DNA of 61,952 nucleotides, the filler included, from Hausera hauseri (Eukaryota): assembly GCA_046269625.1 (NCBI GenBank). It is 11 parts of 11 records of this genome, joined end to end, with 100 filler letters (N's around TTAATTAATTAA, not from the genome) between each part and the next. Parts side by side here need not be neighbours in the genome. Positions count along the whole stretch, not along the records: positions 40,018 to 44,331 come from JBJURY010640108.1; 10 more parts are not named here. One strand, 5' to 3'. Position 1 is the stretch's first letter; the number at the start of each line of letters is the position of its first letter. Shown here in pieces: positions 40,018 to 43,000 of this stretch. The notes under the pieces are model-generated. The model saw nothing but the letters and a program-made list of their open reading frames with translations. It was not told the origin of the DNA and made no database searches. The translations under genes and the position numbers were made by a program.

Positions 40018-43000
40018 GTTTTCACCTCTTTCTGTGTTGGTTGTGCTGAGCGCTTCAATAGGTTAGGGTATTGCGCTTGCAGCAATGGTGCGATATCAAT
40101 GGGATTTGCGATTTTTATACCCTTGACTGCGTTTATGGTTAGAGTGAATGCGGGTGGAGGTAGTGGATTGCTTTCGGCAATCAACTGTGAGATCGTAGTG
40201 ATCTAGGAAGTAAGAACCCAGGATTGGTTGCATGACATCAGCCAATATGAATGACCAAGCGTATGGTCGGCCTTGTAGGTAAAATTGTAGGTACAGTGTA
40301 CCTGTGGTTGATATTCACGTACCATTGGCAGCTTTGAGTGATGCATGCGAGACAAGCATAGGTTTAGCGTATGCGCTAGGTATCAGCGATAAAGCTGCAC
40401 CAGTGTCGATTAAAAAATCGAGCAGTTTCGAGATGTCGGAGTGTAGTGGCTCCGCCTCGAGGGTGAAAATAGCGTCGACAATGCGTTCGCTATTTGCATA
40501 CGGCAGTTGTGGTGATTGGGTTTCCAGTCGACGTGCTGTTGGTCGACTGGACCCATTTAGTTTTTTGATGGCTTGTGAAATTTGCAGCCGGGTCGACAGA
40601 CTTTTGAGTCTGGACCGAAATGGTTGTGATAAATGCAAGTGTGTTGCATTTTTAAGTTTGTCGATGGCTTGTCGAATTGACAACCATGGTAGCATTTATA
40701 GGCGGATTCGCCAAATCTTGTGTGGAAATGGCAAATTTTTAGAAAATTTGCCTTTCTTTCGCTTGGGGGATTGGTGCCCAGATTGCGGTTTGTCTCTGGC
40801 TGGCGGATTCTTGTGCGTTACAAGTGCCTGCAATGCGGCAATGATAGTGTCCAGCTGATTTTGCTGGGTCGTTGTGACGGAATGGATATTTTCCGTCAGT
40901 GTGGATTCTACGGTGCCTTTAGTGTACTCGTATCTTTTGTCGGCTTTTGATGCCATATCGTCCAAAGTAGTATCGGACGGTAATGGCACCAATGCCGCTT
41001 GAATTTGATTGGGCAAACTACTTAGGAAGTAGCGCCGTAGTATGTGCTGGTTAGTGTGGAGGTCCAACTCAGCATTACTCAAGTCTGAGCGTAACTTGTA
41101 AAGCAAAGCAGACGGTTTCATATTCCCTGTCTGTCGCTTGGTGAAGACCAAGTTGAACTGGTCCTGTTTGGATAACAGATATGCTTTGCGTATGGCTGCT
41201 TTGATTTTATCGAACGATTTTTCATCTGACAGTAGTTTGTCCAGATCCGTTATGGCTGCAAGCGTTGTTGGCTGGAGGTATTGAATGCGTGTTAAGGCCT
41301 TGTTTAGTTGGCCGGTGATGCTGCATTAAGTAGCCCATGTTTCAAACACATGGAACCACTTCAATGGCGTTCCGTCCGAACCTACGAAGAAGGTGGGACA
41401 TGCTAATTTTGGTGGTTTGGCCTGTGTTTCTGAAGCAGTTTCTGCTTTTTTGTCAGGCATGTGGTCATCAACGTCTCCTTTTAGTTTTGGAGTCGCCAGT
41501 ATGGTGGTATTGTCAACCAATATTGTATTGATTGTGCAATTATTCTTGCGTAATAATTTTCCATTATAAGAAAATGTATGCTCTGGATACTGCTGGTTTA
41601 AAACTTCCAGCATTGTCGACATATTTAGGGTCGATGGGAAGCGATGAGCTTTTGTCTGACGCCATTCTTGTACAATGTGATGTACTTCGTTTGGCGCACA
41701 ATCGCTCGATGTTGTTTCACCTTGGTAAATTTTGTTGTCTATGTTAATCGACTGACGATTGGGTGAATTGTAAAGTAGCGAATTTTCGCTTGACGTGTGT
41801 GCTATTTTGGCACGGTTCGTATAACCAAGTTTGTATTCCGATTTGACGGTGTTGACGTGTGTGTTAGTGCTAGAATATATTGGCACTTGTTCGATACCAC
41901 GCGTTGTAATTTTCTGGTTGCAGTTGCTTTTGGTGATACAACTGCCAGTGGGTATTGTGATTATGTTTAGTGATGCACGAATGTGACCGGATTAATTTCG
42001 ACAGCCATTGTGTGAATTTGAGCCTGATTGCTATCAATGGCTGTGCGAGGTGTTTGAGCCGGATTGATTTCAACGGCTGCGTTTGTGTTATATGGCGTGA
42101 ATGCAGTAACCGCTGCCACCATTTTAAAGGTCTTACATTTTATAAAACTTGCAAGTAAAAAACGGAAAAGCGTGTAAATGCAGTCGAATAAAACGACTAA
42201 AACAACAGTAAGGAAGACAACAAAATAACGAGAGTAACGTTTATTAGGTTCTCGTAAATCGTCCGCCGAGGCGTACGAGTCCTCGGTTGAGGAGAGTAGC
42301 GGATCATTCCGTGCAGCCCGGGTCAGGACATCGTCCGAACTGGAGTCTGCCGGAGTTGGCTTTTGTCGTAGCGGCTTCAGCCGGCGTCGACGGCGCGGTA
42401 CCGGAACCTCGTCTGGGCTGGAGCTCAGAGTTTGCGGTCTGTCGATTGTGCGTCGATCGGGAATCAACTGGCTTTCCGAAGGAGCCAGTGATTCGTAGAG
42501 ACGGTCAGAGGCAGGCCATCAGTCTTAAAAAACTGGCAGGAAAATCGACGAGTCAAAAAGGTGTCGGCCTTCCCCGTCTTCTTAGAACCGATGAAGCGTG
42601 GTCGCCGGTAGATGGTAGGGATCGTACTGCCCGAACGAAACGGCTCCGTTGGAGCAGCTCACATACTGTCAGAAAGTCCGAATAGGACCGTTACGGGGCT
42701 CGCCTGTTCGTGTTGCGGCGTTGTCTGTCGCGTGGGACGGTATCTTTTCGGGTTGCGCGTTGTCGCTCTTCTGATCGGCTTCGTTGCCGTACAGCGATAC
42801 GGCGGTCGGCGGTACTGCCTGAGTCGTTGTGTGTCGGTCGGGGTATCTTTGAAATACGATACCCCAAAGTCAACGATGTCGTTGTGGCGTCTACTCGAGT
42901 AGTAGCGTCGGCCGGGGTGGCCTTCGAACCTTCTTTGGCGATCGGTTCGCCTGGTTTCGCGGTTGTCAATATCTGCACCTGTTTGAGCGCTATCGGTGCT

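Follow-up and report, generated by a model that had tools for sequence, protein, structure and literature searches.

A ubiquitin-like domain with a Gly-Gly tail upstream of Gag in a lineage of Ty3/gypsy retrotransposons: a probable cleavage signal

In a 61,952-nucleotide stretch of DNA from Hausera hauseri (GCA_046269625.1), here called the window, a broken Ty3/gypsy retrotransposon carries a segment that profiles and structural models identify as a ubiquitin-like (Ubl) domain upstream of Gag (41473-41688, minus strand). The same layout, leader followed by Ubl domain, Gly-Gly (GG) and Gag, characterizes by sequence comparison an entire lineage of Gag proteins that have two CHCC fingers. Cleavage at the GG in some form is very likely, and we consider it probable that a host deubiquitinase makes this cut and frees Gag from its variable leader.

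Results

Organization of the element

The element lies on a single contig (40018-44331, JBJURY010640108.1), with all its parts on the minus strand, and is the 5′ half of a broken Ty3/gypsy retrotransposon. At its upstream end is a probable 5′ LTR (42123-43061, approximate ends) with AATAAA at 42245-42240, a T-rich stretch and a 24-nt tandem repeat at 42993-43061. Related contigs extend over this region with declining depth, and no second LTR was found within the contig. Next comes a primer-binding-site (PBS)-like word that starts with TGG (42109-42121), which we take to resemble a tRNA-Leu site; the 49 loci examined for the identity of the PBS contained no tRNA genes. The first two bases of this word complete an ATG at 42122, which opens a Thr/Asn/Ser-rich leader coding region of about 140 codons (41689-42122). 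The leader is frameshifted near 41960-42000 in the window copy but forms a single frame in P0003, a natural relative of 648 aa that is 71% identical to the window copy and has leader, Ubl domain and Gag in one frame.

The Ubl domain, of about 72 residues, lies inside the stop-to-stop frame 41991-41326, its peptide reading from V at 41685 to G-D at 41478-41473. The tail is P-K-L-K-G-D here and ends in xGG in relatives. An earlier note on this DNA had begun the feature at 41886, a GTG picked by a bacterial ORF finder that is not the true start, and had set the domain directly before Gag. Instead, a linker of 27 residues (41392-41472), carrying the predicted new N-terminus after cleavage, separates the Gly-Gly position from the capsid; linkers in 30 relatives have 12-49 residues.

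The Gag capsid region (40696-41391) is DUF7041-like, with a Pfam E value of 0.15 here and 1e-4 in P0003; a stop codon in frame (41326-41328) breaks it. A pair of CHCC fingers of the form C-x2-H-x9-C-x3-C (motif definition from PMC2582038) was recognized in translation at 40733-40680 and 40637-40584, in a different frame from the capsid, after a frameshift. They are followed by a slippery A run and then the gag stop and a hairpin (40517-40566), a predicted -1 gag-pol frameshift site; the hairpin has a stability of -21.9 kcal/mol (z -5.6), which 0 of 200 shuffles equalled. The aspartic protease and pol start (40018-40460; gag-asp_proteas E 0.004; DTG at 40407-40399) are broken and are ended by the contig edge at 40018, ahead of the reverse transcriptase (RT). 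The order of Gag and then aspartic protease is that of Ty3/gypsy LTR retrotransposons. With its stop and frameshifts, the copy in the window is broken; it is dead and no longer has the Gly-Gly. Copies of the family are very numerous: in three runs, respectively, 4284, 388 and 123 pieces of contigs match 40020-43100.

Other parts of the window hold further mobile elements. At 942-7803 (minus), pieces of RT, RNase H and integrase belong to a broken gypsy-like element, in which the frames 5923-6768 and 7168-7803 resemble, by eye, a viral-type envelope glycoprotein. Polinton/adintovirus-like pieces of DNA polymerase B and endonuclease VII occur at 10074-12831, 17535-18676, 38063-39487 and 51596-53728, and frames at 57870-61249 (minus) look, again by eye, like Polinton-type capsid genes. 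A Gag of another kind, bearing several CCHC knuckles (zf-CCHC E 0.02), lies at 50165-51400 (minus), with a related piece at 55575-56135. An intron of about 55 nt apparently divides a small Cys/Ala/Gly-rich host-type gene at 46554-46892 (minus). The contigs of the window are joined by N runs that surround a 12-base word with a stop in every frame, and the direct and inverted repeats seen at these joins, such as 39918-40017, were set aside as assembly artefacts.

The segment upstream of Gag has a beta-grasp fold

As a single sequence, the Ubl segment of the window copy gave no Pfam match and one PDB match, which was irrelevant; a two-sequence query likewise gave no Pfam or relevant PDB match. 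The single-sequence structure model was poor (pLDDT 53). A model based on an alignment that includes ubiquitin-like rows has the order beta-beta-alpha-beta-beta, with pLDDT 79-94 across residues 11-80. Searching with this model gave a best Z of 8.7 (rmsd 2.5, 69 aligned residues), and a second search, with Foldseek, reached an E value of 1e-4. By title, the 50 best rows of both searches are ubiquitin, SUMO, UBL, UBX and PB1 chains or tagged fusions, apart from a few titles that name no fold. A Z near 8 is middling, but the rows converge on one fold.

Profiles built from the relatives point the same way. A 31-row profile of the domain matches ubiquitin. As a guard against circularity, we removed the ten rows with a Pfam ubiquitin match at E≤0.05, together with P0039; the remaining 20-row profile still matches PDB ubiquitin chains, with single-copy E values of about 1e-5 to 1e-6, and also matches ISG15 and FAT10. 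A further profile, built from 19 relatives that lack a Pfam ubiquitin match at E≤0.05 and leaving out both the window and P0003, scores the window protein at 9.4 bits, a value that 0 of 1000 shuffles reach. Pfam ubiquitin matches at E≤0.05 were found in 10 of the 33 sequences scanned, and 2 of these pass the curated cut-off. For the P0003 domain, weak Pfam matches are limited to two beta-grasp families, ThiS (E 0.01) and the Sde2 Ubl (E 0.06).

The shuffle test and the ubiquitin-free profile matches rule out a chance resemblance to ubiquitin, and a one-off insertion in the window copy is ruled out by the related contigs and by the presence of the domain throughout a lineage of the capsid tree. 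On the combined weight of profile and model, the segment at 41473-41688 is a ubiquitin-like domain. The earlier note had placed a Ubl of about 70 aa at 41473-41685 and had named a beta-grasp fold as the feature to look for. The domain is present there, as the ubiquitin-free profile and the beta-grasp model agree, and the fold appears in the alignment-based model, in both fold searches and in the profile matches to the PDB.

The layout marks a Gag lineage

To place the domain among other Gag proteins, we queried 1.84 billion proteins with P0003 and examined the best 150 of 2381 matches. A Ubl-like segment precedes Gag in 31 of these 150, P0003 included. In a capsid tree made by a quick search (139 rows, with 12 N-truncated rows excluded), one group of 36 rows with SH-aLRT support of 89-90 contains the domain in 31 of its members, again among the best 150 of 2381 matches; the remaining five rows start at most 21 residues ahead of the capsid. 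Outside this group, the domain occurs in 1 of 103 rows, P0043, and 17 of the rows there have at least 50 upstream residues. Two CHCC fingers are found in 29 of the 31 Ubl proteins from the best 150 of 2381 matches and in 11 other proteins, 7 of which are N-truncated. We conclude from these sequences that the leader-Ubl-GG-Gag layout is the mark of the whole Gag lineage with two CHCC fingers.

Several proteins sit at the edge of this pattern. P0043 is a conventional single-CHCC DUF7041 Gag whose Ubl ends in LPGG 21 residues ahead of the capsid (Pfam ubiquitin E 2e-9), and by sequence it is possibly an independent capture. P0012, P0029, P0092 and P0103 are double-CHCC Gags with a predicted start 10-21 residues ahead of the capsid, and may be either Ubl-less members or truncated calls. 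Because P0012, a lineage member that starts on a PBS-like peptide 16 residues ahead of Gag, has no Ubl, the domain may be dispensable.

The family of Ubl-bearing elements is probably from invertebrates, to judge by the types of element and by the pieces of host genes in relatives. The 21 clusters examined come from ENA, JGI or Logan, and their lack of an NCBI or UniRef record may explain why the family is unreported. A longer gag-pol relative of P0003 was not found, which is weak evidence, and scans of metagenome and viral sequences for DNA of the relatives gave no locus; one viral scan confirmed two stretches.

The Gly-Gly tail and the residue that follows it

The window copy reads Gly-Asp where relatives read Gly-Gly, and the earlier note had taken this to be one substitution away from Gly-Gly. 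Contigs of three runs bear this out, reading Gly at 99-100% of depth. The Gly-giving letter accounts for a depth of 7065 of 7114 in X1 (24 contigs), 112 of 112 in X2 (5 contigs) and 38.3 of 38.3 in X3 (4 contigs), and the three codons ahead of the Gly-Gly position showed no differences among the contigs of these runs. The di-Gly that the same note had looked to other copies for is also there, as LKGG at the end of the P0003 domain and as xGG across the relatives.

In an alignment whose rows were chosen partly for their GG, this pair ends 30 of 31 rows, the exception being the window. We therefore held out a further set: among 25 new Gag proteins, all from one sub-lineage, xGG is present in 18 of the 18 that reach the site. 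The relatives share descent, so counts of Ubl and GG are not independent and nominal odds are inflated.

The residue after the GG is restricted as well. Across 49 proteins it is Ser in 23, Thr, Asn and Gly in 5 each, Ala in 4, Met in 3, and Asp, Gln, Val and Lys in one each. Pro, Arg, Lys, His, Leu, Phe, Trp, Tyr and Ile are found there in 0 of 30 domains, compared with 38% in the remaining linker, and the same classes fill 7-11 of 30 at linker positions 2-6. In the wider set, 1 of 49 has Pro or an N-degron-type residue after the GG. This count applies a list of primary N-degron residues that we assume to hold for this position; Asn, Asp or Gln (7 of 49) and Lys (1 of 49) are presumably not stabilising. 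Mostly small residues, with no Pro or primary N-degron among the first 30, are expected of a cleavage that gives a stable N-terminus.

The surface of the domain has diverged

The median identity among 30 Ubl domains is 19%, compared with 32% for the capsid. Among 31 domains, the Ile44 position is Ser or Thr in 22, Arg/Lys72 is retained in 24 and Leu73 in 26. The Leu8, Val70 and Ile44 positions and the lysines are not retained in the Ubl domains; this ubiquitin patch is partly retained in P0033, P0158 and P0178 only. In those three, near-true ubiquitin occupies the Ubl slot, with Pfam E values of 1e-22 to 1e-24.

In Gag, P0033 and P0158 share 73% identity with P0036, but in the Ubl domain 26-27%, whereas the P0036 domain shares 28-48% identity with its other neighbours. 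The simplest reading of these sequences is that host ubiquitin was re-captured in P0033 and P0158, and slow change in one branch may be an alternative. The earlier note had pictured a single capture. The captured Ubl stands but the one-off event does not, since the domain is lineage-wide, with apparently at least one replacement by near-true ubiquitin and one separate case outside the lineage (P0043).

Predicted leaders are variable, often long and in many cases apparently open across the PBS

Among leaders of at least 40 residues, we found two alignable pairs; the others are unalignable. At least 60 residues precede the Ubl domain in 33 of 49 proteins, compared with 9.7% of positions in the window, and at least 100 in 28 of 49, compared with 4.4% of window positions and 0.9% in an AT-rich contig.

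Many leaders appear to run across the PBS. A peptide that corresponds to one frame of the PBS-like word, or of the window's own version, is held by 13 of 30 leaders, with 13 matches in 5815 leader residues and 2 in 47,710 residues elsewhere, using patterns selected after inspection of the leaders. A slightly wider pattern is found in 26 of 49 leaders, a figure without a control. All three PBS frames occur among close relatives; thus any frame of the PBS is allowed, as long as reading continues without a stop to the Ubl. The PBS-like word itself coincides with a Met in the window copy, in P0003 and P0183, and in P0015 together with the seven copies that cluster with it. The window and P0003 leaders are collinear from the same ATG, and the seven copies clustered with P0015 have its open leader from the PBS-like Met. 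A different PBS-like word was followed up at 54 loci, one of which (L042) has gypsy pol downstream, and no Ubl was found at L003, L036 and L042, the three loci with the longer form of that word. In L042, a gypsy element from IMG/VR, the word is followed by a gag-pol frame of 1326 codons.

In some leaders, pieces of host genes are found in frame: HSP90 (E 8e-10), ARP8 (E 1e-3), CSL4 (E 0.02), histone H2A, the DIS3 cold-shock domain, CNOT1, 5′-nucleotidase and the cohesin SCC3. Most precede the PBS-like peptide. Between this peptide and the Ubl lie the 5′-nucleotidase piece, in two contigs (P0183 and P0020), and the CNOT1 piece, also in two contigs (P0011 and P0153). Because the leaders are known from predicted proteins, long ones could be joins made by gene callers across introns. 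P0009, P0018, P0039 and P0042 are JGI/IMG records, and JGI/IMG gene callers are not known to model introns. P0023 covers 3969 of the 4274 bases of its contig.

Discussion

The tail of the domain is retained, its surface is lost, the residue after the GG is small and the leaders are unalignable, a pattern that fits a cleavage signal. On the preferred reading, in which a host deubiquitinase cuts after the GG, the leader, Ubl domain, Gly-Gly and Gag are encoded as one reading frame. Initiation would be early, on an AUG or a near-cognate codon that either lies in the LTR or overlaps the PBS, and the ribosome would read through a region that is 5′ untranslated in other elements. A host USP-type enzyme would then cleave after the GG, releasing Gag with a defined small first residue and also, via the frameshift, Gag-Pol. 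Recognition by the enzyme would depend chiefly on the tail, as in the Fubi-S30 and SDE2 precursors, and the leader-Ubl piece, which ends in GG, would probably be destroyed via a C-degron pathway.

Human proteins offer precedents. In SDE2 and FAU, a diverged Ubl is followed by a diglycine at which the protein is cleaved, and KLHDC2 removes the N-terminal pieces (PMC8013793). SDE2 is cut by USP5 (PMC13572447), and Fubi-S30 by USP16 and USP36 (PMC10611586). Since deubiquitinases also read the Ubl surface (PMC10611586), which is poorly retained here, no specific enzyme can be named.

A broader proposal, which we hold as a tentative possibility, is that the Ubl-GG makes the region upstream of Gag a free expression slot for in-frame passengers from host genes, refreshed by re-capture of ubiquitin. 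Translation could then start at any upstream codon, including the starts of captured pieces of host mRNA, and the translated passengers would be cut away from Gag. Several of the passengers, which come from RNA-decay and chromatin complexes, could act as anti-silencing decoys.

It is also conceivable, although we give it rather little credence, that the Ubl is cut at the GG but serves to aid the folding or expression of Gag, with translation starting at or near the Ubl and the long leaders being incidental or artefacts. Ubiquitin-ribosomal protein precursors, which appear among the PDB matches, are a common host model for such an arrangement, and 16 of the 49 predicted proteins have fewer than 60 residues before the domain. 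However, the nearest upstream Met is at least 30 residues from the start of the domain in 21 of 30, the P0003 and window leaders share their collinear course from one ATG, and P0015 shares an open leader with seven copies.

The released Ubl-GG might instead be the product itself, either conjugated to host proteins or acting as a decoy for ubiquitin enzymes and so damping defence. The C-terminal Gly-Gly of the piece would be free, near-true ubiquitin is present in three members, and OTU or Ulp1 proteases are frequent in transposons (PMC2836005). We nonetheless regard this as improbable. A modifier or decoy should retain its binding surface, yet the lysines and the residues at the Ile44, Leu8 and Val70 positions are lost, and even close relatives are only 20-50% identical in the domain.

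Still less probable is that the Ubl stays attached as an integral Gag domain, for example recruiting budding or proteasome-shuttle factors. An invariant GG and a restricted next residue would be purposeless in an uncut domain, and integral Ubl domains, to our knowledge, usually have no GG. Engineered ubiquitin-Gag fusions can support budding, which favours an attached domain. So does the Burro SUMO-like domain, which sits within a giant polyprotein (PMC6431247).

We see very little likelihood that the xGG is cut by the protease of another element, such as a Polinton-type adenain or an OTU/Ulp1 enzyme, or by a domain, not yet seen, of the Pol that the element itself encodes. Polinton-like polymerase pieces are present in the window, Pol was seen in none of the Ubl-bearing members, and the Ubl tail fits what we take to be the (M/L/I)xGG consensus of adenain-type proteases. 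But a short motif suffices for such proteases, making a whole beta-grasp fold unnecessary, and the swap to near-true ubiquitin implicates ubiquitin enzymes. Cutting by the aspartic protease of the element was rejected, as a Gly|Ser-type site is unlike the sites of retropepsins.

In the usual view, translation of Gag in LTR retrotransposons begins at its own AUG, and their polyproteins are processed by their own aspartic protease. If the host-deubiquitinase reading is true, a lineage that relies on a host ubiquitin protease to form the capsid's N-terminus would connect transposition with the ubiquitin system in a new way, and this protease would be a host control point over the element. It would also explain why the leader of a retroelement tolerates upstream AUGs and captured host sequence. 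The roughly 50 natural, highly diverged Ubl-GG substrates could be used to probe the minimal features of ubiquitin that a deubiquitinase needs.

Comparison with known systems

We take the PBS-like word of the window to be of a type other than tRNA-Trp, unlike that of the CsRn1 clade. Because the PBS looks different and the contig stops ahead of RT, we call the element CsRn1-like, a match that rests on the Gag finger. The clade (CsRn1, PwRn1 and AgCR; PMC2582038) shares the CHCC finger C-x2-H-x9-C-x3-C and a DUF7041-type capsid, and some members have overlapping gag and pol with a -1 frameshift (PMC2582038). The Ubl-bearing proteins differ in having two CHCC fingers, in 29 of 31, and the N-terminal leader-Ubl-GG; the word "ubiquitin" is absent from the main text of PMC2582038. 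The titles and abstracts that we searched describe no Ubl-GG before Gag. In Ginger, Mutator and Helitron elements it is proteases of Ubls, and not Ubls themselves, that are found (PMC2836005).

Burro, or GYPSM1, of planarians is likewise a Ty3/gypsy element whose polyprotein has a ubiquitin/SUMO-like domain (PMC6431247). The Burro polyprotein, of about 5,000 residues, starts with a CCHC Gag and includes an Env; its Ubl is internal, following the Gag and flanked by MATH and BCL-2 domains. The passages that describe this Ubl give no Gly-Gly or processing role for it (PMC6431247), whereas the window lineage retains xGG. The Ubl lineage also differs from Burro in its N-terminal Ubl, short gag frame and small CHCC Gag.

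Ubiquitin insertions in pestiviruses are cleaved by host hydrolases. Cytopathic pestiviruses also resemble the present lineage in that captured ubiquitin lies just ahead of a protein that needs release, and in their repeated independent captures (PMC13517609). Those inserts are sporadic and recent and belong to an RNA virus, whereas the Ubl described here is old, diverged and fixed in its lineage.

SDE2 and Fubi-S30 share a diverged N-terminal Ubl-GG, a USP cut that frees the working C-terminal part (PMC13572447, PMC10611586) and clearance of the N-terminal piece by KLHDC2 (PMC8013793). Both are encoded by host genes, and their Ubl sits at the extreme N-terminus, whereas the retrotransposon Ubl follows a leader. 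In addition, SDE2 exposes a destabilising Lys after the cut, while the Gags of this lineage would nearly always expose a small residue.
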